64,000 nucleotides of DNA from a bacterium (GTDB lineage: Bacteria; Patescibacteriota; Microgenomatia; UBA1406; GWC2-37-13). Made by a program: the position numbers and the translations under genes. Below are positions 8,625 through 61,032 of this stretch, piece by piece. The stretch is from positions 112,241 through 176,240 of the forward strand of contig JAKQDR010000172.1 of the NCBI GenBank assembly GCA_029573715.1, in the 5' to 3' direction. The notes beneath the pieces are model-generated. The model was given only the letters and a program-made list of their open reading frames with translations, did no database searches and had not been told where the DNA came from. Every line of letters begins with the position of its first letter. Positions within the stretch are counted from its first letter, which is position 1.

Positions 8625-8651
8625 CCCCCTCACCACACGTGGTGAAGGGGG
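8625..8651. repeat. palindrome CCCCCTCACCACACGTGGTGAAGGGGG (copy 2 of 3)
   Basis: Read directly. It lies ~80 nt after the stop of 7530..8546. Confidence 0.9.
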
Positions 8652-8883
8652 ACTCTATCATGCAAATCACTTCGTGCAACGCGGCGACCCAAGCTGGGGT
8701 CAATGCTTACGCACAGGTGCCTGTATGGTAGAGGGTTCACCTAAATCAATCACAAAACGTAATTGGTTGAGGTGAATGCAGCATACAAGTTCCAAATTTC
8801 ACGATGCGATGAGACATATGGCATACGGAATGCGGAACTTATTTTGGTATAAGGATGAGAGTAGTTGAATATGAAAAACTATT

Positions 8884-12628: not shown

Positions 12629-12756
12629 TTGTGTCACAATTCTTGTGACGATAGCCTTGACCGGCATGTCTTTTTCCTTGGATCGTACTTGTGGCGCCTT
12701 ATAAGCAAGCACCAAAAATACGTTTAGCGACTTTCTTCACTAAAAAGAAAAAAAGA

Positions 12757-14572
<1,816 letters not shown>

Positions 14573-14792
14573 GAAATTGCAGGAATACTCTTTTCATTGC
14601 TGAAAAGGTACCTACAGCTCAATTGCTAGGCTTGCTCGCCTCAATGTGCTTAAAGCACTTTGGGCGAGATGTGTGTGCATTCGGGCATCATACGACGCCC
14701 GAAATAATTTCCTCGATTTATCAATGTGCGGGACACTATTTTACTAGATACGAGACTCAAATACAATGGGCATAGCCTCGGGTGATCAGGAG

Positions 14793-32112: not shown

Positions 32113-32214
32113 GCAGGTTCCCCGCAATCGTGTGCGATATGCGGGACTAACTGTCCGTAATGCTCGAGTTTCACTCGTCGCAAACGGTCAGTTGAGCAAG
32201 TCCTGCCAGGCGCA
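32113..32214 (+). repeat. truncated second copy of the tRNA-Arg(UCG) T-arm and acceptor 3' strand, split inside the T-loop by a 76-nt two-hairpin element (32121-32196)
   Basis: GCAGGTTC (32113-32120) plus CAAGTCCTGCCAGGCGCA (32197-32214) reproduce the tRNA 3' part exactly. The insert is CCCGCAATCGTGTGCGATATGCGGGACTAACTGTCCGTAATGCTCGAGTTTCACTCGTCGCAAACGGTCAGTTGAG. Confidence 0.8.
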
Positions 32215-32336: not shown

Positions 32337-32381
32337 CAGACAGTATCAGAAACAGCAATTGCCCCCTCGATGACCCACCAT

Positions 32382-32602
32382 AGAGTTAAGAGCAGTCCGC
32401 CAGTGGGCGGATTGGTTGAGAGTTCGAATCTCTCCGGACTCACATACACCAAGGGGAGGGGTTTCCGCCAAAAGCGGACAGGTTTTGAGAGTTCTCCCGA
32501 TAGTCATTAATAGCTATCGGGACAAATCCCGCAAAGCGGGGAAATCTCTCCGGACTCACATAAACCAAGGGGAGGGGTTTCCGCCAAAGGCGGACAGGGT
32601 TT
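32382..32602 (+). repeat. array of tRNA-like 3' halves and 52-nt direct repeats downstream of tRNA-Lys
   Basis: An uninterrupted T-arm plus acceptor strand GAGAGTTCGAATCTCTCCGGACTCA ends at 32442. A second copy (32487-32558) is split after TTC by TCCCGATAGTCATTAATAGCTATCGGGACAAATCCCGCAAAGCGGGG. The repeat CGGACTCACATAMACCAAGGGGAGGGGTTTCCGCCAAARGCGGACAGGKTTT occurs at 32435-32486 and 32551-32602. Confidence 0.8.
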
Positions 32603-32607
32603 GGAAG

Positions 32608-33279
32608 TTACTTCGCCAGCAGATTTGTGACCAGCTCTTCAATGCCAATGCGTTTCTTCGCGGATGTTTTGACGATTAATATATCAGGATTTACATCGTA
32701 GATATTTTGGATGGCTTTTTGTTCATCAAACTCAGCTACTGATGCCAGATCAATTTTAGAAATCACGCATATATCTGCAGAATGAAACATGGTGGGGTAT
32801 TTGAGCGGCTTATCTTCCCCTTCAGTCACTGCCATAAGTACCATGCGCTTTGTTTCTCCCAGATCATAGCTTGCGGGGCACACTAGATTGCCCACGTTCT
32901 CAATAAATAATATGTCAGCATCTCGCCATGGAAGGGTTTTAAGCCCTTGCTTCACCATACGCGCATCCAGATGACAGGCGCCATGCGTGTTGATCTGATA
33001 TGTGTGAGCTCCGCTTGATGCGAGCCTTTTTGCGTCATGGTCGGTTGATAAATCTCCCACAATGGCACAGACATGCAATCCCTTTGTTATAAGTTCGCGC
33101 GACACGACAGTAAGGAGTTCAGTTTTTCCCGACCCAGGGCTTGATACGACATTGATAACGGTGGTTTTATTTTTTGCAAAGTTGCGCCTCAAAATTTGCG
33201 CCCGCCGATCATTCTCTTCCAATATACCTGTCCGAATGGTCATGATTTTTGGATTGTTACTCATAGGTGATGCGGTCAA
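32608..33279 (-). CDS. hypB: hydrogenase/urease nickel-incorporation GTPase HypB
   Basis: It has the P-loop SSPGSGKTELL, CHLDARMV and ENVGNLVCPASYDLGE motifs typical of HypB. Confidence 0.9.
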   Translation of the reverse strand: MTASPMSNNPKIMTIRTGILEENDRRAQILRRNFAKNKTTVINVVSSPGSGKTELLTVVSRELITKGLHVCAIVGDLSTDHDAKRLASSGAHTYQINTHGACHLDARMVKQGLKTLPWRDADILFIENVGNLVCPASYDLGETKRMVLMAVTEGEDKPLKYPTMFHSADICVISKIDLASVAEFDEQKAIQNIYDVNPDILIVKTSAKKRIGIEELVTNLLAK

Positions 33280-51017: not shown

Positions 51018-53105
51018 TCAGGCGAGTGATTTGATCTTCTCGCGTAGCGCGATGGCCGCTTCAAAATCCATAGCTTCTGCTCTTCTTTTCATCTCGCGCT
51101 CAAGGCGCCTAATCAACTTTGTTCTATCATATGGCGTAAGCCCACTGGGGTTTATGTTTTTGAGTTTTCCGAAATCAAATGCCGTTTCTTTGGTTTGTCG
51201 TGGGTCAAGTAGATCTGCAGGATTCTCTTCTTTCACAATTATCTTTTCTCTGATGGCTTTTTGTATTGATTCTGGTGTGATGCCATGAGTTTTATTATAT
51301 TGCATTTGATAAGTACGACGTCTGTCTATTTCTGCAAGCGCTTCTTCCATGCTGCGCGTCATCTTGTCTGCATACATTATCACTTCACCTCGTATATTGC
51401 GCGCTGCCCTCCCCATGGTTTGAATGAGTGAGGTACGAGAGCGCAAAAAGCCCTCCTTATCCGCATCGAGAATGGCAACTAAAGTTACTTCTGGTAAGTC
51501 TAACCCTTCACGAAGCAAGTTAACGCCGATAAGCACATCGTAGGTGTTGTTTCGCAAACTATCAAGCACATCAGAACGCTCCAGCGTGTGGATGTCAGAG
51601 TGCAGATATGCCGCATTGATCCCTTTATCTTTGACATACTCGGTAAGATCCTCAGCTGTTTTTTTCGTGAGAGTGGTGATAAGCACTCGCTCTTTGCGCT
51701 TCGCGCGTGTTTGCACCTCAGCAATGACATCGGGAATTTCCGAAGATGCCGGCCGAACCACTACCATAGGATCAATAATGCCCGTGGGCCGTATTAGTTG
51801 TTCGACAATGCCGTTGTTCGCCTTGCTTTCTACCTTTCCATCGTGCGCGTGAGATTTGGCATGCGCTTGAGTGAGGCTCAGCTCCCATTCGTGAGGAGTT
51901 GCTGAAATATAAACGATATGCGGTGCTTTTGGATAAAACTCGTCAAATGTGAGTGGCCTGTTGTCAAGCGCTGATCTAAGGCGAAAGCCGAAATCAATAA
52001 GTGTATTTTTGCGTGACTTATCTCCGTTGTACATACCGCGAATTTGCGGCACAGTCATATGGCTTTCGTCAATACATACAATGAAATTCTCACCATATGC
52101 TGCATGAAAATAATCAAGCAAACTATAAGGAGCATCACCTGGCTTTCTGCCATCAAAATATCTGCTGTAGTTTTCAATGCCATTCACGTACCCCACTTCT
52201 TTAATGATCTCAAGATCATAATTTACTTTTTGAGTGAGTCTGCGTGCTTCAAGTTCTTTCCCCGCACGTCGGAGTGCGTCAGATTCAACAGCCAAATCAT
52301 GACGGATTTGGGCTTCGGCATTTGCGAATGCCGGGGAGCTCGTGATATTGTGTTTGGCGGGCGAAACTATGATTGATTCGACCACCTTTTGATCTATGCG
52401 TTTCCCAGACATGGGGTCGACTATTTCAATAGTGCTTATCTTCCCCCCCTGGTCGATAAGTCGGTAACAATAATCTTCATACGCCGGATATATATCCATG
52501 TATGATCCTCTCACTCTGAATGTACCCCGCTTAAACTCAAACTCAGATCGCTCATATTGCAAATCAACGAGCTTGACGGCAAGTGCACGCCAATCCGCAG
52601 GCTCCCCAACCCGTATGGGGAGCATCATGTTTTCCCATGAACTTGGATCACCGATGTTATAGATACAACTGACTGATGCAACAACAATCGTGTCTTTACG
52701 AGTGAGTATATTTGCGGTCGATTGAAGGCGCAACTTGTCGATTTGGTCATTAATTTGGGCCTCTTTTTCAATGTAGGTGTCGGAGCTGGGAATGTAGGCT
52801 TCCGGTTGATAATAATCATAATATGAAACGAAATATGAAACGGCATTATTAGGAAAAAAGTCTCGAAATTCCTGATAGAGCTGGCCCGCAAGTGTTTTGT
52901 TATGTGAAATGACAAGCGCGGGCATCTGAAGTTTTTGGATGACATTGGCGATGGTAAACGTTTTGCCCGAGCCTGTTACACCTAATAACACCTGGTTTTT
53001 GAGTCCCACAGATATGCCATGTGCGAGCTTTTCAATGGCCTGAGGCTGATCGCCAGTGGGCTTGAAGGGAGAACGAAGAACAAACATAAAGGTATTATAT
53101 GCCAT
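51018..53105 (-). CDS. uvrB: excinuclease ABC subunit B
   Basis: It has GVTGSGKTFT, the helicase motifs and a C-terminal UVR domain (EMKRRAEAMDFEAAIALREKI). Confidence 0.97.
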   Translation of the reverse strand: MAYNTFMFVLRSPFKPTGDQPQAIEKLAHGISVGLKNQVLLGVTGSGKTFTIANVIQKLQMPALVISHNKTLAGQLYQEFRDFFPNNAVSYFVSYYDYYQPEAYIPSSDTYIEKEAQINDQIDKLRLQSTANILTRKDTIVVASVSCIYNIGDPSSWENMMLPIRVGEPADWRALAVKLVDLQYERSEFEFKRGTFRVRGSYMDIYPAYEDYCYRLIDQGGKISTIEIVDPMSGKRIDQKVVESIIVSPAKHNITSSPAFANAEAQIRHDLAVESDALRRAGKELEARRLTQKVNYDLEIIKEVGYVNGIENYSRYFDGRKPGDAPYSLLDYFHAAYGENFIVCIDESHMTVPQIRGMYNGDKSRKNTLIDFGFRLRSALDNRPLTFDEFYPKAPHIVYISATPHEWELSLTQAHAKSHAHDGKVESKANNGIVEQLIRPTGIIDPMVVVRPASSEIPDVIAEVQTRAKRKERVLITTLTKKTAEDLTEYVKDKGINAAYLHSDIHTLERSDVLDSLRNNTYDVLIGVNLLREGLDLPEVTLVAILDADKEGFLRSRTSLIQTMGRAARNIRGEVIMYADKMTRSMEEALAEIDRRRTYQMQYNKTHGITPESIQKAIREKIIVKEENPADLLDPRQTKETAFDFGKLKNINPSGLTPYDRTKLIRRLEREMKRRAEAMDFEAAIALREKIKSLA

Positions 53106-53114
53106 CTATTGAAT

Positions 53115-53702
53115 TTAATTACTCAAACGAAGCTTCGCATAATTTATCATAGTAAGAACAAGTGCTGCGCTGCCATAAAAGAGGGTAACAATAATCGCAG
53201 TAGGATCTGTAAATGTGCTCCACACATCTGCGACGACCCGCCAAGGCTGAGAAAATACATACCACGAATTAGTTCGATGCAGCCGTCCCATGGCAATGGC
53301 AAACCCAACAGCATACGAGAAAAGCAAAAAGATAGTCAGTCGCATCAGTGGAGATACTCTCACAAGTGATGAGTGAAATACGCGCAAAACCGGTTGTGTC
53401 GCGCGCCAGAAAGTGAATGGTCCCAGAACAATAATCGTGGCATAGAGCCCAATGCCAAGCATGATAAATGGACCAGTCATTTGTATGAATCGATAGTTAA
53501 AGACATGAATTACGTCTGTGACGAGATATAACGTGTTTGGCACAAATAATATCCAGAGTCCTAAAAGCGCCATGCGCTTCCACACGTTGTGCGTTCTTTT
53601 CACCTGGTGACCGAGCGCTATGGCAAATGTTGCCAGCAGAATATTCCACCCCATCCACACACAGTTAAACAGAAAATATGATAATGACTGGGCGTGATCC
53701 AT
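53115..53702 (-). CDS. integral membrane protein, DUF1361-like
   Basis: 195 aa with 5-6 TM segments and the motif LFVPNTLYLVTDVIH. Confidence 0.5.
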   Translation of the reverse strand: MDHAQSLSYFLFNCVWMGWNILLATFAIALGHQVKRTHNVWKRMALLGLWILFVPNTLYLVTDVIHVFNYRFIQMTGPFIMLGIGLYATIIVLGPFTFWRATQPVLRVFHSSLVRVSPLMRLTIFLLFSYAVGFAIAMGRLHRTNSWYVFSQPWRVVADVWSTFTDPTAIIVTLFYGSAALVLTMINYAKLRLSN

Positions 53703-53777
53703 GAAAATGTAGGAATAATAGCTGTGTGGGTATGCATTCTACCATATCCCTTGCCTTTCATATCGTAACACCTTATT

Positions 53778-54710
53778 ATGAAGTATATGGATGCGCATAT
53801 CACGTGGCTCACAGACTACCACGACTCTGACATAGATCCGTATGCGAAGGCGCTCGATCTTGGCCTACCCCTGGCCTATGGATTTGTCATACCACGTGCG
53901 CTTATGCATAGCACATTTCTGCCAATTGGAGTGCAGCAAAAACTTATCCCTCTTTTCGAGCTCGCCCAGCATCACAGTGCTCATGAGATTGAGCATTCTC
54001 AAAAACTTATCCATAAGATAATTGAGGGTATCAAAATATTCCCGATATTTCTGCGTCAAATACACACATCATACGAATCCTTGCTGGAGCATGAACGCAA
54101 GTATTTACGTTTACATGTCACCGATTTGCATCGAGCTCATCATATTTTGCGACATGTGTATGCTCCGCCGCCCGTATCTGTGCGCTTTCTCCCCAATACT
54201 CCCGCCACGCTTCATTGTGCAGGAGAGCAAAGTTTGGTGCACACCATAGCGCTTTTGGTGATAGAAAGTCTTAAAAAAAACCTGATATCTGGCGCCTCGC
54301 CTCATGTGCAAAGTGTGCTCGTACAGCGGATGTATAACGGTCAATATTCTGGATATTGTGACACCACAAATACAGTACGATCTATGCAAAATCAGCTGGT
54401 CGTGTATGGCAACGCAGGGGCTCGGATGCTTGATGAGGCCGGCGACATGTATATCGTTGATAAAGAAAACATGCAAATTATTGACAAACATGTGCTTACT
54501 CAGCCGTTCAAATACACACTCAAAGGAGCAGAATATAAAAAAATCGCACTTCACGAACAAGATGGAGACAGACAAACGTTGCCCGATTCGCTTGTATTAA
54601 AAGTCGCTTACACCGCAAAAGATGTTGAAAAAAAGTTGTATTTCCCCCATCGAGTACATTGGACATTTGAAAATGGATTGCTATACATTACAAAATTACG
54701 TCCTTTGTAA
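53778..54710 (+). CDS. PEP/pyruvate-binding (PPDK N-terminal, ATP-grasp-like) domain protein
   Basis: The resemblance is weak and by eye (GLPLAYGFVIP..., C-terminal LLYITKLRPL). Confidence 0.35.
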   Translation: MKYMDAHITWLTDYHDSDIDPYAKALDLGLPLAYGFVIPRALMHSTFLPIGVQQKLIPLFELAQHHSAHEIEHSQKLIHKIIEGIKIFPIFLRQIHTSYESLLEHERKYLRLHVTDLHRAHHILRHVYAPPPVSVRFLPNTPATLHCAGEQSLVHTIALLVIESLKKNLISGASPHVQSVLVQRMYNGQYSGYCDTTNTVRSMQNQLVVYGNAGARMLDEAGDMYIVDKENMQIIDKHVLTQPFKYTLKGAEYKKIALHEQDGDRQTLPDSLVLKVAYTAKDVEKKLYFPHRVHWTFENGLLYITKLRPL

Positions 54711-54727
54711 CTTATTTATCCCATTTT

Positions 54728-55294
54728 ATGATTGGAAAAATAAAGGGCGCATTGGTAGAAGTGGACGGGAGCGAGGGCTTGATAGCAACACCTGGTGGGG
54801 TGAGTTATCGGGTGCATATACCACAGAGTATGCGCCGGCCTGATGAAGTGCAGATGATTGACGTATACACATACTTGCACGTTCGAGAAGACCAACATGT
54901 GCTGTATGGCTTTGAAACCAAACAGCACTACACTATGTTTCTTATGTTGCTAGATGTTGACGGCGTCGGCCCAAAAACAGCACATACTATCGTGGGGAAG
55001 CTAAGCATGCAAGAGCTCATGGATGCAGTACGCACAAAGAGTGTTGATATTCTCACTCAAATTCCGGGATTGGGGAAAAAAACTGCGCAAAAAATAATTC
55101 TTGAGCTTTCAAGTAAACTGAAAACAGATCTTGATGTCGCTTCTCTTATTGAAGATCCTGTTAATAATGAAGTTCTTGAGGCGCTCGTTGCGTTGGGCTA
55201 TAAAGCAAGTGAGGCGCGAAAATTACTTAAAGGAGTTGATGTTAAATCCTCAACGGAAGATCAGATTAGATTCGCATTACAAAAGAAAACATAA
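54728..55294 (+). CDS. ruvA: Holliday junction DNA helicase RuvA
   Basis: It starts MIGKIKGALVE, has HhH motifs (GVGPKTAHTIV, IPGLGKKTAQKI) and is 188 aa long. Confidence 0.9.
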   Translation: MIGKIKGALVEVDGSEGLIATPGGVSYRVHIPQSMRRPDEVQMIDVYTYLHVREDQHVLYGFETKQHYTMFLMLLDVDGVGPKTAHTIVGKLSMQELMDAVRTKSVDILTQIPGLGKKTAQKIILELSSKLKTDLDVASLIEDPVNNEVLEALVALGYKASEARKLLKGVDVKSSTEDQIRFALQKKT

Positions 55295-55299
55295 CCTCT

Positions 55300-55947
55300 A
55301 TGGGGAAAGTAAAGTTTCTTCCAATCTTGCTCGTACTGGGCATGGTGATAGGATTGTCAGCATTAGGAATTACATACTTGATGAAGGCCGGACATGTGGT
55401 TGATAGTGTAAAAATCAAGGGCGTGCGTGCGTATGGTGGATTTTTGCAACAGTCTGAAGCAGATGTTCTCGGTACACAAGCAAAAACTGAAGCGGGAGAA
55501 TATCATACGTATATTTATTATTTTAATGAAGACAAGTTCAACACATTGGGAGCAAATGACTATACGAGCTCAATCACTCGGACGACTCCGCGTACCGATC
55601 TTGCAACTTTTTCAATTGAGCAAATAGTGCGCGGCCCTGTGGAAGATGAAATGCTTCAGGGTTTTCGACCAACATTTGGAACAGGTGCCATTGCACAATT
55701 TGCTGGTGAATCACGTTGTGGTATAAAACAGTTTTTCGTGACGCTCGACCCTGAAAACTATTTTGCACAGGTTACGTTTTGTAAGCCGATCACAACAGAT
55801 GTAGACTGGGGTTATCGATTTATCACCCAGCAGATTCGAAAAACCCTCATTCAATTTGAACGCATACACAAAGTGCGAATTGTTACTATTGATGATACGT
55901 GTCTGGATGGATCCCCATCACTTGAACCAACTGATTGTGTCTACTAG
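55300..55947 (+). CDS. membrane-anchored hypothetical protein, possibly GerMN-like
   Basis: It has an N-terminal TM segment. The segment EQIVRGPVEDEMLQGFRP is weakly GerMN-like. Confidence 0.4.
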   Translation: MGKVKFLPILLVLGMVIGLSALGITYLMKAGHVVDSVKIKGVRAYGGFLQQSEADVLGTQAKTEAGEYHTYIYYFNEDKFNTLGANDYTSSITRTTPRTDLATFSIEQIVRGPVEDEMLQGFRPTFGTGAIAQFAGESRCGIKQFFVTLDPENYFAQVTFCKPITTDVDWGYRFITQQIRKTLIQFERIHKVRIVTIDDTCLDGSPSLEPTDCVY

Positions 55948-55968
55948 CAGTATCTCTGATAGCGCGTT

Positions 55969-56985
55969 GTGCATTTTTGGCTCGTATCTTCTATAATGCG
56001 AATCATGAAACAACAGCAACCGCTGACTAATAATCTGCGCCCTCATACCATTAAAGATTATATCGGACAGGAATCGGCAATCAAAACACTCAAACTATTT
56101 TTAGAAGGGGTGCGCAGACGAGGCTTTGCTTCAGAACATGTATTGTTTTATGGCCCCCCGGGCATCGGGAAAACCACCCTTTCCTACATCATTGCGAAAG
56201 AGTTAAAAGGCGATCTCAAAGTAGCCACCGGCGCCACTCTCACCAAAACGGGTGACTTGGCAGCGATCCTCACCAATTTGAAGGATAACGATGTGCTTTT
56301 TATTGACGAGATACATCGTATGCCCAAAGCCGTTGAAGAAATTTTGTACCCAGTAATGGAAGAATACTCACTTGATATTGTCATTGGCAAGGGGCCTTCA
56401 GCTCGAACTATGCGCCTGCCTGTTCCTCGCATTACCATTGTGGGGGCTACTACCAAATTGGCACTCTTGTCTGCGCCACTTCGCGATCGATTTGGCCTTG
56501 TGCTTCGTCTTGATTTTTATCATCATCATGAAATGACAAGCATAATCAAACGATCCGCCCAACTTATCGGCATCAGTATTTCCGATACTGCAGCTGCCAA
56601 TGTTGCAAAACGGAGTAGGCGTACGCCTCGAATTGCGAATCGCATTTTGAAGCGCGCACATGACGTTGCCCAATCCCAAGGCGCCGACACCATAGATGAG
56701 GCGCTGCTTGAAAAGTTGTTTGGCCTTCTGGAAATTGATTCAGTCGGACTGACGGATATTGATTTGCAGTATTTGCGTGCTATAGCCCTCACGTTTGAAA
56801 ATAAGCCGGTCGGAGTTGACACCTTGTCATCATCGCTTGCCGAAGACAGACGAACCATTGAGGAGTTTATTGAGCCGTATCTTTTGCAAATTGGCTACAT
56901 TCGAAAAACTCCACGTGGGAGGGTGGTTACAACAGCGGGCCTTATGCATCTTAAGACACATAACAACGATACATTGCCTTTTTGA
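55969..56985 (+). CDS. ruvB: Holliday junction DNA helicase RuvB
   Basis: It has LRPHTIKDYIGQ, Walker A GPPGIGKTTL and Walker B LFIDEIHR. The real start is probably the internal MKQQQPL. Confidence 0.95.
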   Translation: MHFWLVSSIMRIMKQQQPLTNNLRPHTIKDYIGQESAIKTLKLFLEGVRRRGFASEHVLFYGPPGIGKTTLSYIIAKELKGDLKVATGATLTKTGDLAAILTNLKDNDVLFIDEIHRMPKAVEEILYPVMEEYSLDIVIGKGPSARTMRLPVPRITIVGATTKLALLSAPLRDRFGLVLRLDFYHHHEMTSIIKRSAQLIGISISDTAAANVAKRSRRTPRIANRILKRAHDVAQSQGADTIDEALLEKLFGLLEIDSVGLTDIDLQYLRAIALTFENKPVGVDTLSSSLAEDRRTIEEFIEPYLLQIGYIRKTPRGRVVTTAGLMHLKTHNNDTLPF

Positions 56986-57026
56986 AGATGATTTATTCGT
57001 GTTAAAATAGTGATAATGCATTGTGT

Positions 57027-57126
57027 GCCGCGGTGGTGGAACATTCAACTCGGACTTGCCGATACGTAAGTACGGCTTAGAGCGAGTGAATCCCCTCACC
57101 ACGTGTGGTGAGTGGGGGCAGACACG
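57027..57126 (+). repeat. 5' fragment of tRNA-Leu(UAA) (acceptor 5' strand plus D-arm) split in the D-loop by a 74-nt two-hairpin element in inverted orientation (57043-57116)
   Basis: GCCGCGGTGGTGGAAC (57027-57042) plus GGCAGACACG (57117-57126) equal positions 1-26 of the intact gene at 57183. The reverse complement of the insert is CCCACTCACCACACGTGGTGAGGGGATTCACTCGCTCTAAGCCGTACTTACGTATCGGCAAGTCCGAGTTGAAT. Confidence 0.8.
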
Positions 57127-57182
57127 ATGCGAAGCATCGCTATAATGACAAGATGAATTGATAGTGACAAATGTGAGAGTAC

Positions 57183-57266
57183 GCCGCGGTGGTGGAACGG
57201 CAGACACGCAGGACTTAAAATCCTGTTCCTGTATAAGGAGTGAGGGTTCGACCCCCTCCCGCGGCA
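57183..57266 (+). tRNA. tRNA-Leu(UAA), long variable arm, CCA not encoded
   Basis: GCCGCGGTGGTGGAACGGCAGACACGCAGGACTTAAAATCCTGTTCCTGTATAAGGAGTGAGGGTTCGACCCCCTCCCGCGGCA. Confidence 0.9.
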
Positions 57267-57335
57267 CTTGCAAAGGGATGGGGGGAGAAGTTTGTCGAAG
57301 GACAGCGAGGATGTATTAAGGCTCAAGCCCGTAAC

Positions 57336-59051
57336 ATGGAGGGCAATACTCGTATGCACGACTCACCACCGTCATCAAAACAATCATTGCAATGGCCACA
57401 GATACTCTTGTATGGCCTGGTCATACTCGGCACTGTGCTTAATCTACTCTATATTATTCCCAATGGCCATGTTACATGTGTTGATGCAACATGTGGCATT
57501 CGAATTGGAGAATGGCATTATCACGATGCACTCTGGCATATCGCCGTAGCGCGCAATTCATTTACCTCATTTCCACTACTCTTCCCTTCTGCATCTGGCT
57601 TTGAACTTACATCATACAACTACCTGTTGGGCTTCATAATATTTCTATTTGAGTGGACAAAGCTCGATCCATTTTTTGTATATTTTAAACTACTACCACT
57701 AATTGGCAATGTGCTCCTAGTTTACACACTTTTTCGATATTTTAGTCATACGCAAAAGACAAGATGGCAACAGATATGGATTACATTTTTCATGTACTTT
57801 GGATCCTCGCTTTCGTACCTGCTCATATGGTATCGAGGTAATCTTGTTGAATTTAGCATACTTAAAGGTTTTCCGGTCGTTGCAACCGTGCAGCCTGCAT
57901 TTGTACTTTCGAATGTGCAGTTTTTTCTCACCATACCTATCATCCTCTATATTTTCACCGATATCGTGACCAGAAACAGATCCCCCCATACACGTCTTAT
58001 CCACGCATCTCTACTCGCTCTTTCTATTGGTCTTAAAATCTATAGCGGGCTATTTGTCGGACTTATTCTTCTTATTGGCCTTATAGACGAATTCATTTCA
58101 AACAATAATTTTAAAAGTACATTGATATCGGGAGCCACCTATTTGTGTGTATCAATTGTTTCCGTACTAATCTTTTATCTTCCATTTCGCATGAGTTCTT
58201 CAGCATTTCCATTTGTGTGGGCTCCCTTTGCCATACCTCATGTCATCACAGAATCGCCCGGCTTGTTCTATCATAAAGATTTTACGCTCGGCAGATATTT
58301 TATGTATGGGCTCGGCACGATTTCTCCACGTCTAATCTTCTATGAACTTCTAAGCACCATGTTTTTTATTTTGTGGAATTTGGGGAGTCGTGTCATTGTG
58401 TTTGTCATCGTGCCCCTTTTAATCTTTCGTAAGGCAATACATCGAGAACACAGCATATTGTTTGCACTCGGATCTATAGGGCTCATCCTCCCCATACTGT
58501 TTATTCAATCAGGTGGTGGATGGTACAACACCATTCAATTTGCATACGTAGGGGTGTATTTGCTGGGTGTTCTTGCGGGTCTTTGTCTAGCTGTAATGAC
58601 TCAAAGTCGATTCTTATTGATGCGTGTATTTGTCATTTTCTTCGTGATAATTACTATTCCCAACAATCTACTCATGTTTTCATTGCTCGCGAAAGAAAAA
58701 TTACTTATTTCAAGTGAAGAAATACACGTGTTGACGGCCCTCAAGCAGGAGCCGCGCGGAGTTGTCTTGTCGTTTCCCGATGATAAAAATTCATCTTATG
58801 TCCCCGCTTTGTCAAACAAAATTGGTTACATGATTGACTACGAGCAGGCTCGATTGCTTGGACTACCGGTAGAAGAGCGCATTAAAAAAGTTGAGGCAAG
58901 AGATTGTTCAGTGCTTGCTGACGTTCGGTATGTGTACGTGAATTCTATCAAAGGGACAGAATATCTTGAGTGTCCCGGATTTATTGATGTGTTTAGATTG
59001 CGTCATACAAAGGGTGAGATAAGCCTGTACATGAAAATTGATTATCTTTAG
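57336..59051 (+). CDS. large polytopic membrane protein (GT-C / O-antigen-polymerase-like), function unknown
   Basis: The track ORF starts at 57240 inside the tRNA gene. I moved the start to the first ATG after the tRNA (MEGNTRMHDS...). The protein has more than 10 hydrophobic segments. Confidence 0.6.
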   Translation: MEGNTRMHDSPPSSKQSLQWPQILLYGLVILGTVLNLLYIIPNGHVTCVDATCGIRIGEWHYHDALWHIAVARNSFTSFPLLFPSASGFELTSYNYLLGFIIFLFEWTKLDPFFVYFKLLPLIGNVLLVYTLFRYFSHTQKTRWQQIWITFFMYFGSSLSYLLIWYRGNLVEFSILKGFPVVATVQPAFVLSNVQFFLTIPIILYIFTDIVTRNRSPHTRLIHASLLALSIGLKIYSGLFVGLILLIGLIDEFISNNNFKSTLISGATYLCVSIVSVLIFYLPFRMSSSAFPFVWAPFAIPHVITESPGLFYHKDFTLGRYFMYGLGTISPRLIFYELLSTMFFILWNLGSRVIVFVIVPLLIFRKAIHREHSILFALGSIGLILPILFIQSGGGWYNTIQFAYVGVYLLGVLAGLCLAVMTQSRFLLMRVFVIFFVIITIPNNLLMFSLLAKEKLLISSEEIHVLTALKQEPRGVVLSFPDDKNSSYVPALSNKIGYMIDYEQARLLGLPVEERIKKVEARDCSVLADVRYVYVNSIKGTEYLECPGFIDVFRLRHTKGEISLYMKIDYL

Positions 59052-59106
59052 TGTCGCACTACTTATAGTATGTTTGGCCTCTCGATGATAAAATATGAGG
59101 GTTGTC

Positions 59107-59178
59107 GCCGCCTTAGCTCAGTGGTAGAGCACTCGCTTTGTAAGCGAATGGTCGCGGGTTCGAATCCGGCAGGCGGCT
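59107..59178 (+). tRNA. tRNA-Thr(UGU), CCA not encoded, one G-G mismatch in the T-stem
   Basis: GCCGCCTTAGCTCAGTGGTAGAGCACTCGCTTTGTAAGCGAATGGTCGCGGGTTCGAATCCGGCAGGCGGCT. The acceptor stem is perfect, while T-stem GCGGG/CCGGC has a central mismatch. Confidence 0.75.
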
Positions 59179-59197
59179 CATAGCTTGGAGTAACAAC

Positions 59198-59225
59198 AGA
59201 TATGAGTTGGTAGATATGAGTTGGT
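59198..59225 (+). repeat. exact 14-nt tandem duplication AGATATGAGTTGGT x2
   Basis: Read directly. It lies inside the decayed tRNA-Thr copy. Confidence 0.9.
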
Positions 59226-59230
59226 CGATC

Positions 59231-59326
59231 GGGTTCCCCGCTTCGCATATTGCTTTGCGGGATAAACTGGCAGGTAATGCTCATTGCATTCGCAAACTGC
59301 CAGTTGAACGAATCCGGCAGGCGGCT
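59231..59326 (+). repeat. truncated copy of the tRNA-Thr T-arm and acceptor 3' strand, split in the T-loop by a 72-nt two-hairpin element (59237-59308)
   Basis: GGGTTC plus CGAATCCGGCAGGCGGCTCATAG reproduce the tRNA 3' end and 5 trailer nt. The insert is CCCGCTTCGCATATTGCTTTGCGGGATAAACTGGCAGGTAATGCTCATTGCATTCGCAAACTGCCAGTTGAA. Confidence 0.8.
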
Positions 59327-59336
59327 CATAGTTCAA

Positions 59337-59413
59337 GGCCTCATAGCTCAATTGGACAGAGCAACTCCCTTCTAAGGAGTAGGTTGGCCGTTCGATTCGG
59401 CCTGAGGTCACCA
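59337..59413 (+). tRNA. tRNA-Arg(UCU), CCA encoded
   Basis: GGCCTCATAGCTCAATTGGACAGAGCAACTCCCTTCTAAGGAGTAGGTTGGCCGTTCGATTCGGCCTGAGGTCACCA. The final A is also the A of ATG 59413. Confidence 0.9.
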
Positions 59414-60675
59414 TGAATTCAGTAAGTAGTAACAAAAAGAAGTATCTATTCTTCCCTATCGAGATCGGACTTGCCCATATTTGCCGTTCTCTCGCTGTTG
59501 CCGAGGAGCTTGTTGCGCGGGGTCACACGGTGTATTTTGCTCTCCCTAAGCGCAAATGGAAGTTGTTTTCTCATACCACCGTTACTTTAGTTTCGATTGA
59601 AAGTTATGTAGCTGCTGACGATTTCGGCATGAATGTGAAACTGTTTCGAGATCCAAAACTTATCGATCGGGTGGTATCAGAGGAATTAGCGCTCATTGAC
59701 AAGTACAATCCTGATGCAGTAATTGTTGATTTCCGTATTTCTGCTTTTGCGGCAGCTACCATACGAGGTATATGCACGTTTGCTATTTTTGTGGGCGACG
59801 GCCTCCCTTATGGTGCTCATTTGCCTAATCCCGGCCTGCCTCGATGGGCATATCGATTGTTTCGTAATGTCTTTCCAAAATTGTATGATGTGGCATCACG
59901 CTGGTACCTCAACCCGTTTATCAAATATATGCGAAATCATGGGGTACACACATCATTTGATGCGTGGATGCGTGCAGTTACCTATATCGTCCCTGAAGCG
60001 CCGTTTTATATGCCTCCTGCCTCATCAACACTCCAGGTGCATCACACAGGTACCCTCGGTTGGTATGCATTTGATAATCCAATACCCCCATGGCTTGACA
60101 AGATGTGCCCGGATGGACGCACCGTGTATGTAAGTTTTGGAGGTACCGGGTTTGATAAAAACAAACCAATCGAAATCTGCATGGCCCTTGTGAAGAAGGG
60201 TTATCGTGTAATTGTCACAACAGGATCAATTTCAAACCCGTCCGACTATCCATCACATCCCAATCTTTTTGTCACGACTTTTTTGCCAGGCAACACAATA
60301 TCTAAAAAAATTGATGTGCTTGTGTGTCATGGGGGGTATGGCACGATGATGGATGCGATTCAATGTGGGGTACCGGTTGTTGCAATTCCTTTTAATCCCG
60401 ATCAGATATTACACGCAGCACGCATGCAGGAGCTTGGGCTTGCCAAATCTCTTCTGACGCTTTCCGCCCGTGACACATATAATGCGTTTACGTTTCAATG
60501 GAAACATATTGAGGAAAAAGGCAAGCAAATACCATCAAGCACCATTGTCCAGGCAGTGGATGAGTTGATAAAGAAGAAAGATTTGTATCAAACCAATATT
60601 CGAAACTTTAACGCGAAATATCCCAGCACCAACGGCGCATCAGAAGCTGCTGATATAGTTGAAAAGGGCCGTTAG
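59413..60675 (+). CDS. GT1-family (MGT/UDP-glycosyltransferase-like) glycosyltransferase
   Basis: It has the C-terminal nucleotide-sugar signature VCHGGYGTMMDAIQCGVPVVAIPFNPDQ. Confidence 0.75.
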   Translation: MNSVSSNKKKYLFFPIEIGLAHICRSLAVAEELVARGHTVYFALPKRKWKLFSHTTVTLVSIESYVAADDFGMNVKLFRDPKLIDRVVSEELALIDKYNPDAVIVDFRISAFAAATIRGICTFAIFVGDGLPYGAHLPNPGLPRWAYRLFRNVFPKLYDVASRWYLNPFIKYMRNHGVHTSFDAWMRAVTYIVPEAPFYMPPASSTLQVHHTGTLGWYAFDNPIPPWLDKMCPDGRTVYVSFGGTGFDKNKPIEICMALVKKGYRVIVTTGSISNPSDYPSHPNLFVTTFLPGNTISKKIDVLVCHGGYGTMMDAIQCGVPVVAIPFNPDQILHAARMQELGLAKSLLTLSARDTYNAFTFQWKHIEEKGKQIPSSTIVQAVDELIKKKDLYQTNIRNFNAKYPSTNGASEAADIVEKGR

Positions 60676-60708
60676 TCCCGCGGAGTCTTGACGAACCGGG
60701 AAACCTCC
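60671..60708 (-). repeat. truncated copy (T-stem strand plus hairpin 1 plus ACTAAC) of the tRNA-Leu(GAG)-associated element, overlapping the GT1 stop codon
   Basis: The minus strand reads GGAGGTTTCCCGGTTCGTCAAGACTCCGCGGGACTAAC. Compare GGAGGTTCCCCACTTCGTCAAGACTTCGCGGGACTAAC at 61032-60995. Confidence 0.75.
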
Positions 60709-60935
60709 ACCAGCTTCCTTATTTACTATGAACACATGTGGGTGGCCCGCCACAGTTCGGGCTTTCGGCTTAGGTCGCATATCTGCGACACAAGAATCGT
60801 ATTTCTAACTATCTTGCAATAGTTAGAAACGATCTCTATGCATATTTTCGCTGCGCCTCATGCGCTCACTTATCGGCGGGCATTGATATACCTAACCTCG
60901 CCATATGTTGCTTTGCTCGCTAAGGTATATCAATG

Positions 60936-61032
60936 TGCCCGAGAGAGGATTTGCTCAACGGGCAGTATACGAATGCAATGAGTAGTACCTGCCCGTTAGT
61001 CCCGCGAAGTCTTGACGAAGTGGGGAACCTCC
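60936..61032 (-). repeat. truncated copy of the tRNA-Leu(GAG) T-arm and acceptor 3' strand, split in the T-loop by a 71-nt two-hairpin element (60954-61024)
   Basis: The minus strand reads GGAGGTTC [CCCACTTCGTCAAGACTTCGCGGGACTAACGGGCAGGTACTACTCATTGCATTCGTATACTGCCCGTTGAG] CAAATCCTCTCTCGGGCACA. Confidence 0.8.

Follow-up and report, generated by a model that had tools for sequence, protein, structure and literature searches.

A structured element within split copies of tRNA gene ends at the ruvB/tRNA-Leu(UAA) locus of a Microgenomatia bacterium

Introduction

A 64,000-nt stretch of a genome of the Microgenomatia (Patescibacteriota; contig JAKQDR010000172.1 of assembly GCA_029573715.1, positions 112,241 to 176,240), referred to below as the window, contains an intact gene for tRNA-Leu(UAA) downstream of ruvB. 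The gene is preceded by a copy of its own 5′ end, and this copy is split within its D-loop by an insert of 74 nt. The insert is an inverted member of a structured element family that we name E, whose copies occur at other tRNA genes of the window and of related genomes.

Among the closest described systems are the PATEs, which are miniature derivatives of IS200/IS605, and the REP/REPINs, short non-coding hairpin elements that are mobilised by Y1 (HUH) transposases and whose structure matters as single-stranded DNA. E resembles them in being built from hairpins, in having neither terminal inverted repeats nor a target duplication, and in its fixed orientation beside a short motif. It differs in having no linked cognate transposase, in targeting the loops of tRNA fragments instead of generic intergenic DNA, and in that its hairpins are not arranged as an inverted doublet.

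Partial tRNA duplications, attL and attR, are left by phages, by integrative conjugative elements (ICEs) and by genomic islands, as stated in the passage of PMC9897764 that cites Reiter (1989) and Williams (2002). As in such integrase-made duplications, a complete and a partial tRNA copy lie side by side here, the intact gene is preserved and the repeat is about 26–35 nt long. Unlike them, it is the 5′ end that is duplicated at this locus, the duplicate is split in a loop by a 74-nt element, the unit of 156 nt has no integrase, and the same element is found in D, anticodon and T loops. A different parallel is offered by the free-standing GIY-YIG homing endonuclease genes, such as segB in the tRNA gene cluster of phage T4 (PMC2330249). 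Relatives of the window likewise have small GIY-YIG genes wedged beside tRNA genes, patchily distributed even among close relatives, and co-transfer of the flanks would be expected. Unlike segB, these open reading frames (ORFs) of the Candidate Phyla Radiation (CPR) encode putative nucleases of 80–100 residues with no recognisable DNA-binding domain, they are accompanied by hairpin-split 30-nt duplications of tRNA 5′ ends, and the copy in the window has no ORF of any kind.

Mobile introns are also described at non-canonical positions of archaeal tRNA genes (Fujishima et al. 2010, as cited in PMC10714607); as far as that passage goes, they too are short insertions at D-, anticodon- and T-loop positions that spread between the tRNAs of a genome. 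The introns in that account interrupt a functional gene and are spliced by an endonuclease at a bulge-helix-bulge motif, whereas E lies in a truncated, dead bacterial copy, often antisense, with the intact gene alongside. Finally, rRNA genes of CPR bacteria carry insertion sequences and introns with homing endonucleases (PMC11270868). These share with E the lineage and the habit of residing in essential, conserved RNA genes, but they are group I or II introns, or insertions inside the functional gene that are removed or tolerated, while E is no intron, has no match among the Rfam families and occupies duplicated gene ends. No description of this arrangement in CPR bacteria was found in full-text literature searches, and the E pattern, a form of selfish DNA that targets tRNA genes, is apparently undescribed and has a genuine chance of forming a class of its own.

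Anatomy of the ruvB/tRNA-Leu(UAA) locus

The original prediction placed the first 26 nt of tRNA-Leu(UAA) upstream of the gene in two pieces 74 nt apart. A k-mer scan finds both to be exact and collinear with the tRNA: nt 1–16 (GCCGCGGTGGTGGAAC) at 57027–57042, on diagonal 57027, and nt 17–26 (GGCAGACACG) at 57117–57126, on diagonal 57101, so that the insert between them is exactly 57043–57116. The intact gene at 57183–57267 (ARAGORN and Rfam RF00005, 56.9 bits) begins 56 nt past the second piece. By our own arithmetic, the chance expectation for an exact 16-mer within 1 kb together with a collinear 10-mer within ~100 nt is roughly 1e-11. The dead copy starts 41 nt past ruvB and the live gene 156 nt further on, and the ORFs that flank this 156-nt unit are ruvB and a gene for a membrane protein. 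The features are listed below, where R1 is the covariance model of E described in a later section and numbers with the prefix L denote loci of relatives or metagenomes fetched for comparison.

56986–57026, plus strand: spacer from the ruvB stop codon to the tRNA fragment, where a native leader would lie (the ruvB ORF ends at 56985)
57027–57042, plus strand: outer arm of the dead 5′ copy, comprising the acceptor 5′ strand, D stem and start of the D-loop; exact 16-nt match to 57183–57198
57043–57091, minus strand: the ATTCAC linker, the long hairpin 2 and the GTTGAAT terminus of E (from the fold; R1 match at 57043–57096, minus strand)
57092–57116, minus strand: hairpin 1 of E, CCCAC TCACCACACGTGGTGA GGGG, matching a 24-nt palindrome that recurs at 747–770 and 8626–8649 (from the fold; repeat family D7; inverted repeats I8, I12 and I13)
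57117–57126, plus strand: inner arm of the dead copy, nt 17–26; exact 10-nt match to 57199–57208
57127–57182, plus strand: 56-nt spacer from the dead copy to the live gene, with a small hairpin GATGCGAAGCATC; sequence identical in L081
57183–57267, plus strand: intact tRNA-Leu(UAA), CCA not encoded (ARAGORN, Rfam RF00005)

The insert, when taken on the minus strand, forms two hairpins (DNA ΔG −19.1 kcal/mol, z = −5.6, with 0 of 200 shuffles as stable), in agreement with the two-hairpin architecture with an ATTCAC linker that had been proposed for it. The break in the stub falls between C16 and the GG equivalent to G18-G19. A promoter-like match at 10 of 12 positions spans the inner arm and the spacer, with a −35-like CAGACA at 57119–57124, overlapping the inner arm, and a −10-like TATAAT at 57141–57146, within the spacer.

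The insert is the most diverged copy of E that we have seen: its linker is ATTCAC and not ACTAAC, its end is GTTGAAT and not GTTGAGC, and its hairpin 1 has been exchanged for a local palindrome. This is the 24-nt palindrome of repeat family D7, which is also found, as first noted from the sequence, at 747–773 and 8626–8652. At these two places the palindrome, CCCCTCACCACRYGTGGTGAGGGG, stands alone, in two GC-rich intergenic islands crowded with further GC hairpins. It could be an independent small module, either mobile or a terminator, which came into the element by a swap.

The same locus in related genomes

The 80 best RuvB relatives of the window are without exception metagenome-assembled genomes of Roizmanbacteria, Woesebacteria or other Microgenomates, and the gene order ruvB, tRNA-Leu(taa), tRNA-Thr, tRNA-Arg ... 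tRNA-Leu(gag) is conserved. L081 is a Logan assembly of a separate sample (DRR438461) and is 91.6% identical to the window over 5.9 kb, with 98% identity in RuvB. It has the same fragment, insert, spacer and tRNA, and its insert differs only at positions 57072 and 57092. As L081 is an independent assembly with its own single-nucleotide polymorphisms (SNPs), the structure is not an assembly artefact, and an assembly duplication as the source of the 26-nt identity, a possibility raised at the outset, is ruled out.

Over the cassette region the two strains differ at 2 of 156 positions. This low divergence is no evidence of selective constraint, since the surroundings from ruvB to tRNA-Arg are 96–100% identical overall. 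The window from 53000 to 59413 is in fact a mosaic with respect to L081, with ~84% identity over the PPDK-like gene, ruvA and the next ORF and 96–100% from ruvB to tRNA-Arg, apart from an 87-nt intergenic stretch (57268–57350) at 66%. This pattern suggests a recent recombination tract that includes the cassettes.

More distant relatives vary at the locus. In L001 (RuvB 80% identical) the tRNA lies about 35–45 nt past ruvB and there is no fragment. In L083 and L084 (83%) the interrupted fragment is absent, and the interval from ruvB to tRNA-Leu(taa) holds a 98-residue GIY-YIG ORF with 35-nt direct repeats on either side. L085 (82%) has the fragment, a variant of E, GCAGACACG and a 64-nt spacer. 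Altogether an interrupted 5′ fragment is found at 7 of 52 tRNA-Leu(taa) loci near ruvB. At several of the positions where a stub is expected we find runs of ~100 N (L001 4320–4418, L023 11044–11147) or contig ends (L087, L088 and L089), which suggests that stub repeats break metagenome assemblies.

The element family E

A typical copy of E is about 65–80 nt long and consists of a GC hairpin (hairpin 1), an ACTAAC linker, a hairpin of 11 + 3 bp (hairpin 2) and a GTTGAG end. The covariance model R1 was built from 13 copies, with the Leu(UAA) insert excluded, and the window was scanned with it unfiltered. The three training copies from the window score 57–61 bits. The best match outside the training set is the Leu(UAA) insert, on the minus strand, at 14.7 bits; the match is full length (positions 1–53) and ends exactly at the insert boundary, 57043. 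Its E-value is 0.082 in the 64-kb window (128 kb searched) and 2.5e-4 within the 197-nt ruvB–tRNA spacer alone, and nhmmer gives 2.1 over 2.3 Mb. The sister genome L085 has a clearer member of the family at the same site (29.6 bits, E-value 4e-6). The original prediction had taken the insert for an inverted relative of the T-loop elements of the window and had proposed a covariance-model search; both the search and the L085 ortholog bear it out.

In Microgenomates genomes and metagenomes we have found 75 copies of E. R1 confirmed 14 copies in ruvB loci and 39 in the first 80 metagenome loci fetched by DNA pattern, and an nhmmer profile of the aligned copies detected 18 more in the remaining 39 metagenome loci. 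The same DNA pattern matched 28 times in IMG/VR viral contigs, and none of these matches passed the covariance model. In 45 distinct sequences, pairing in the outer stem of hairpin 2 amounts to 97.8% and 55 cells are doubly changed (compensatory), which 0 of 500 shuffles attain. With RNAalifold this stem grows to 11 bp by taking in the TAAC/GTTG motifs, and an inner stem of 3 bp, likewise covarying, is added. As judged from this covariation, the structure of hairpin 2 is under selection.

The two ends, YCCCGC... and ...GTTGAG, are unrelated, and E thus has no terminal inverted repeats. There is no target-site duplication either: the tRNA sequence runs on from one flank to the other, and the junction is ambiguous by no more than 1 nt. 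No ORF-bearing copy was found, and hairpin 1 spans just 13–27 nt in nearly all copies, too little space for an ORF. A search of Rfam, over the window at the gathering threshold and over two element regions at E ≤ 10, returned only tRNAs, 16S rRNA and one chance match to a CRISPR-DR family.

Nearest neighbours group by genome. The Thr and Leu(GAG) copies of the window are 79% identical, and the Leu(UAA) and Leu(GAG) copies of L085 are 89% identical. As copies at different tRNA sites are most alike within a genome, E appears to move, or to undergo gene conversion, between non-homologous sites.

A relation to hairpin 1 is seen at tRNA-Arg(TCT) in L004 (11326–11410) and L073 (2441–2510), where a second near-complete copy lies downstream of the gene. 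In this copy the 17-nt anticodon arm is replaced by a perfect 17-nt hairpin, TCCCGCC-NNN-GGCGGGA, which is the hairpin-1 module of E.

Sites and orientation of E

With few exceptions the 75 copies either occupy a D, anticodon or T loop in a partial tRNA copy whose intact gene is adjacent, or abut the acceptor ends of an intact tRNA. The classes are as follows.

T loop of a 3′ partial copy, sense E: at least 20 copies
D loop of a 5′ partial copy of tRNA-Leu (taa, caa, tag), antisense E: at least 19 copies
Anticodon loop of 5′ partial copies of tRNA-Thr, antisense E: 4–8 copies
T loop, antisense E: about 10 copies
Abutting acceptor ends of intact tRNA-Thr, either orientation: 4 copies

In at least 19 more 5′ fragments of tRNA-Leu, a canonical E has the same inverted orientation as in the window. 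The first reading was right that the locus is no plain 3′-end att duplication. The inverted D-loop arrangement is no exception: it belongs to the two commonest classes.

The GTTGAG end always faces a DNA motif, C-R-W-N-Y-C-C, located 3′ of the element. Over 54 distinct flanks the bases following GTTGAG are C (48), A or G (45), A or T (54), any base, a pyrimidine (45), C (47) and C (31). The motif is fitted by CAAATCC in the sense T loop and by CATTCCACC in the antisense D loop of class II tRNA-Leu. Because the tRNA-Leu D loop, read antisense, shares the motif with the sense T loop, E is inverted here. The flank of the Leu(UAA) copy in the window, TGTTCCACC, has the minority base T at +1 (5 of 54), G at +2, T at +3 and C C at +5 and +6. 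Judged by these flanks, the position and orientation of E are set by a DNA motif and not by the three-dimensional structure of tRNA. The insertion point immediately 5′ of G18-G19 was correctly placed in the original prediction, and the motif explains it better than tRNA elbow structure does. For the same reason we rejected insertion at the RNA level at the elbow (G18-G19 / C56): orientation tracks the DNA motif and is often antisense.

Nested or tandem copies occur in the window (60626–61025) and in L085, L143 and L107, and point to repeated invasion. In L107 (1–360) there are three identical tandem units of 120 nt, each made up of a tRNA-Leu 3′ end, trailer, T-stem stub and E; they imply either repeated insertion at one T loop or unequal recombination.

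The antisense T-loop copies of L128 (1480–1610), L108, L183, L094 and L101 share an extra hairpin, GATGAGAACC-N4-6-GGTTCG, preceded by a terminator. Neither ARAGORN nor Rfam detects an intact tRNA upstream in L128, L108 or L183, and an Rfam search of all five loci found no upstream RNA gene of any kind in these three. The GATGAGAACC...GGTTCG hairpin was considered as a hammerhead ribozyme and rejected, as it is without the GAAA core.

Other scarred tRNA genes in the window

Partial copies accompany five of the eight tRNA genes of the window (Arg-TCG, Lys, Leu-UAA, Thr and Leu-GAG). With this proportion, and with the family recurring across many Microgenomates genomes, the phenomenon emerges as one of the main forces shaping tRNA loci, in genomes that are usually seen as streamlined with little mobile DNA. 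Partial 3′ copies trail Arg-TCG, Lys, Thr and Leu-GAG, and in three of these (not Lys) the T loop is split by an insert of 73–78 nt built as (Y)CCCGC...GCGGGA / CTAAC / long hairpin / GTTGARC. Each of the three inserts is preceded by a T-stem 5′ strand particular to its own tRNA, which marks the split sequences as genuine partial copies of the genes.

32120–32197, plus strand: E in the T loop of the 3′ partial copy of tRNA-Arg(TCG); R1 56.7 bits; arms GCAGGTT at 32113–32119 and CAAGTCCTGCCAGGCGCACA from 32197
59236–59309, plus strand: E in the T loop of the 3′ partial copy of tRNA-Thr(UGU); R1 60.2 bits
60953–61025, minus strand: E in the T loop of the 3′ partial copy of tRNA-Leu(GAG); R1 60.7 bits
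60626–60709, minus strand: older, degenerate second copy, GGTGGAGGTT followed by hairpin 1 and CTAAC...; repeat family D8; R1 13.8 bits, E-value 0.14

The degenerate copy overlaps the 3′ end of a glycosyltransferase ORF. The T55/C56 junction is also used by other insert families, in L008/L021, in L007 and at the tRNA-Lys locus of the window, and the phenomenon is therefore broader than E.

GIY-YIG and other selfish genes beside tRNA genes

In L007, L022 and L056 the ORFs between the interrupted 5′ fragment and the intact tRNA encode GIY-YIG proteins (Pfam PF01541, E-values 1e-12 to 1e-17). In 1.9 Mb of fetched cellular DNA, 14 of 17 GIY-YIG matches lie within 150 nt of a tRNA, compared with 5.9% of bases, and all 14 are co-oriented with it. 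These ORFs are flanked by duplications of 30–32 nt of the tRNA 5′ end in L007, L022, L056, L085 and L154, and the outer duplicate is split by short GC palindromes that hold inverted copies of the flank (GGCAGAC/CTGCC...). In L022 and L154 such palindromic inserts, with inverted flank copies, lie between nt 24 and 25 of tRNA-Leu. From their sequence these flank-copying palindromes look like templated repair scars, and those of L022 and L154 are an indirect pointer to a putative nuclease that would cut the ORF-less allele close to the insertion point.

The tRNA-linked ORFs (L007, L022, L030, L056, L062, L083, L085, L101, L107, L143 and L154) are 80–100 residues long and comprise the catalytic domain only. 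In several of them the reading frame continues through about 30 nt at the start of the tRNA gene, and the last residues (...AELADAHA) are then tRNA-encoded.

The two kinds of insertion are met together in places. L154 has a series consisting of fragment 1–18 with inverted E and GCAGACG, 9 nt, and fragment 1–24 with a palindrome and CGCGCAG; these stubs are followed by a GIY-YIG ORF and then by intact tRNA-Leu(tag). The same nesting is found at tRNA-Leu(gag) of L085, and GIY-YIG ORFs stand beside E-bearing fragments in L154, L143 and L101. The window itself has no GIY-YIG ORF apart from uvrC. Other selfish genes near E are an HNH gene beside an E-bearing stub in L022 and, in L052, an IS200-like Y1_Tnp ORF (PF01797, 27.5 bits) 34 nt from an E-bearing fragment. 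Y1_Tnp genes are rare: about 1.6 Mb of fetched loci gave 3 tblastn matches, of which one is near E and none lies in the window.

Discussion

We slightly favour a reading in which the locus bears the traces of selfish DNA that has come and gone at an essential, single-copy tRNA gene: cassettes duplicate the end of the gene and E enters the resulting stub. Small cassettes would invade tRNA genes by recombination that duplicates about 26–35 nt of the gene end, and those in relatives would be the ones that still carry stand-alone GIY-YIG nuclease genes, sometimes HNH. Each cassette would supply or restore a complete gene while the former end stays behind as a dead stub, and an event would survive only if an intact tRNA is kept. 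In the window the nuclease ORF would have been lost, leaving the 56-nt spacer 57127–57182 where relatives carry a GIY-YIG ORF, and this spacer may supply the promoter-like −35 and −10 sequences to the live gene. E would be non-autonomous and would insert 5′ of C-R-W-N-Y-C-C, probably in single-stranded or hairpin-extruded DNA. As these tRNA genes lack another intact copy in the vicinity and presumably occur as single copies, and as insertion into the live gene is presumably lethal, E would persist only in stubs. Candidates for the mobilising enzyme are the tRNA-linked GIY-YIG nucleases, acting through break-induced copying, and an IS200-like Y1 (HUH) transposase; the latter best fits the anatomy of E and the former best fit its neighbourhood.

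More tentatively, the Microgenomates may harbour a mobile system of an undescribed kind that lives at the loops of essential tRNA genes without splicing. It would consist of the ~70-nt E, with no ORF, terminal inverted repeats or target-site duplication, co-propagated with cassettes that replace gene ends and are driven by minimal, tRNA-linked GIY-YIG nucleases. E would then recognise C-R-W-N-Y-C-C in hairpin loops of tRNA gene DNA. One might call this homing in which a spare part takes the place of the intron, and its product would be arrays of split tRNA stubs nested in one another. Such a system would give selfish DNA a third route into an essential RNA gene, besides splicing, as in introns, and integrase att duplication. 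With a precise DNA target and a covarying structure defined, it is open to biochemical testing. It also bears on a huge and functionally obscure class of proteins, the 80–100-residue GIY-YIG proteins linked to tRNA genes, and has a practical side, in that the stubs appear to break assemblies and can mislead tRNA annotation.

Several observations weigh against the favoured reading. The Leu(UAA) copy of the window itself scores weakly in R1, at 14.7 bits. No nuclease, transposase or integrase gene adjoins any of the five affected tRNA loci of the window, so that mobilisation in trans has to be assumed. E and a GIY-YIG ORF lie at most 300 nt apart in just about 4–5 of 75 cases, and both may simply prefer tRNA genes. 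An uninterrupted 5′ fragment of tRNA-Leu(taa) was found at 0 of the 52 loci, which is unexpected if the stub pre-exists and E arrives later; this is at odds with a simple two-step model and suggests a tighter coupling of the two events. There is no exact pair of empty and filled sites at close distance, the nearest insert-free genome being 80% identical in RuvB. Lastly, in L133 (2150–2310) and L155 (2530–2700) the arms of E (GGGGGTT ... AAGTCCCTCAACGGCCACC) pair with each other and mismatch the resident tRNA-Val(CAC). Here arms and E may travel together, the stub having been imported with E, or else the stub may be very old.

The alternative that survives best, though we hold it to be rather unlikely, is that E is a miniature derivative of an IS200/IS605-type (HUH, Y1) single-strand transposon, PATE- or REP-like, and that the tRNA duplications are an unrelated background. 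Much of the anatomy would suit such an origin: two different subterminal hairpins are kept by covariation, neither terminal inverted repeats nor a target duplication is present, insertion is oriented relative to an adjoining conserved short motif, the sites are loops of hairpin-forming DNA on either strand, and the copies cluster by genome. The Y1_Tnp ORF 34 nt from E in L052 points the same way, but there is no E on the other side of that gene, and the rarity of Y1_Tnp in the fetched loci and its absence from the window speak against it. Guide/target complementarity of the IS608 type could not be demonstrated; the GTTGAA/GTTGAG end varies without tracking the target. A transposon with an unrelated background also leaves two things unexplained, the occurrence of all loop insertions in duplicated gene ends and the lack of an uninterrupted fragment at any of the 52 Leu loci.

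It is improbable that the tRNA pieces are attL/attR remnants of larger integrase-integrated elements (phage or ICE) that subsequently shed nearly all of their DNA, comparable to cis-mobilisable elements (CIMEs), with E as part of a former att-site arm. A partial tRNA copy beside a complete gene is the classical signature of an integrated element (PMC9897764), and direct repeats of about 26–35 nt are within the range of att identity blocks. By eye, an ORF next to an E-bearing fragment in L101 also looks like the C-terminal zinc-ribbon part of a serine recombinase, although no Pfam family matched it. However, at the present locus it is the 5′ end of the gene that is repeated, with an interruption within a loop; in many independent genomes the inserted unit as a whole measures just 92–160 nt, and no integrase flanks any of the five window loci. 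The same element of about 70 nt is moreover found at three different loops, with both orientations in the T loop, no copy of it turned up in the IMG/VR viral contigs, and it occurs in nested form and in tandem 120-nt units (L107).

Still less probable is a functional RNA or regulatory device, in which fragment and E would be kept by selection for leader pairing, as a processing or termination signal, or as a decoy to which tRNA-binding factors would attach. The strong covariation and conserved internal loops of hairpin 2 would agree with a function, as would the 2 differences in 156 positions between two strains, although this low divergence is unexceptional for its surroundings. The acceptor 5′ strand of the fragment, being identical to that of the tRNA, could in principle pair with the tRNA 3′ strand, but the promoter-like −35 and −10 sequences between fragment and tRNA mean that the fragment may not be in the precursor at all. 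E is antisense in the D and anticodon classes and mostly sense in T loops, where both orientations occur, so there is no single transcript context in which it could act. It matches no Rfam family, and close relatives (L001, L083 and L084) do without the device. A chance match or an assembly artefact such as a mis-joined repeat can safely be set aside: contigs of relatives do often break or carry N-runs at these loci, where assemblers struggle, but the collinear 16 + 10-nt identity is exact, the independently assembled L081 has the same structure with SNPs of its own, and more than 20 other genomes or metagenomes carry it in diverged sequence.

Some more specific identities for E were considered and rejected or judged improbable. 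A classical miniature inverted-repeat transposable element, as a derivative of a DDE transposon, would call for the terminal inverted repeats and target-site duplication that E lacks, and a long target-site duplication around E is excluded by flanks that are contiguous tRNA sequence and not repeats. Against a tRNA intron, whether group I or of the archaeal bulge-helix-bulge kind, stand the end of the interrupted copy at nt 26, the absence of an Rfam match at E ≤ 10 and the antisense orientation of E. There is some likeness to integron attC sites, in that GTTGAGC fits GTTRRRY and (G)ACTAAC fits RYYYAAC in all but one base. It is probably fortuitous; the tRNA junction comes after GTTGAG and not inside the G/TT crossover, and no integrase was seen. 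As E abuts tRNA sequence, a scaffold with guide resembling a TnpB or IscB omega RNA was also considered; it was rejected because such a "guide" would be directed at the live gene next to it, and neither TnpB nor IscB genes were seen.

Additional features of the window

The tRNA-Lys(CUU) region (32338–32610) is organised differently from the other scarred loci. The gene is followed by an uninterrupted copy of the T arm at 32411–32448, and the next T arm is split by a different two-hairpin insert (TCCCGATAG..CTATCGGGA CAAA TCCCGCAAAGCGGGGA). The trailer of this tRNA, 67 nt with a terminator-like hairpin, is repeated 116 nt apart (32427–32493 and 32543–32609, 93% identical).

All five tRNAs with partial copies are without an encoded CCA, while the three that encode it (Val, Asp and Arg-TCT) have no partial copy, in what is a small sample; the tRNA-Thr of L001, which is without a cassette, also encodes CCA.

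The 16S rRNA gene (12756–14575, minus strand) spans 1820 nt, compared with 1533 positions in the bacterial model, and must therefore include insertions totalling ~290 nt, a typical trait of CPR bacteria. The first 250 nt of the window are GC-rich and contain 51-nt tandem units (CCCACNGCCACCGCGAC...) that are roughly 80% identical to each other, probably a repetitive coding region.

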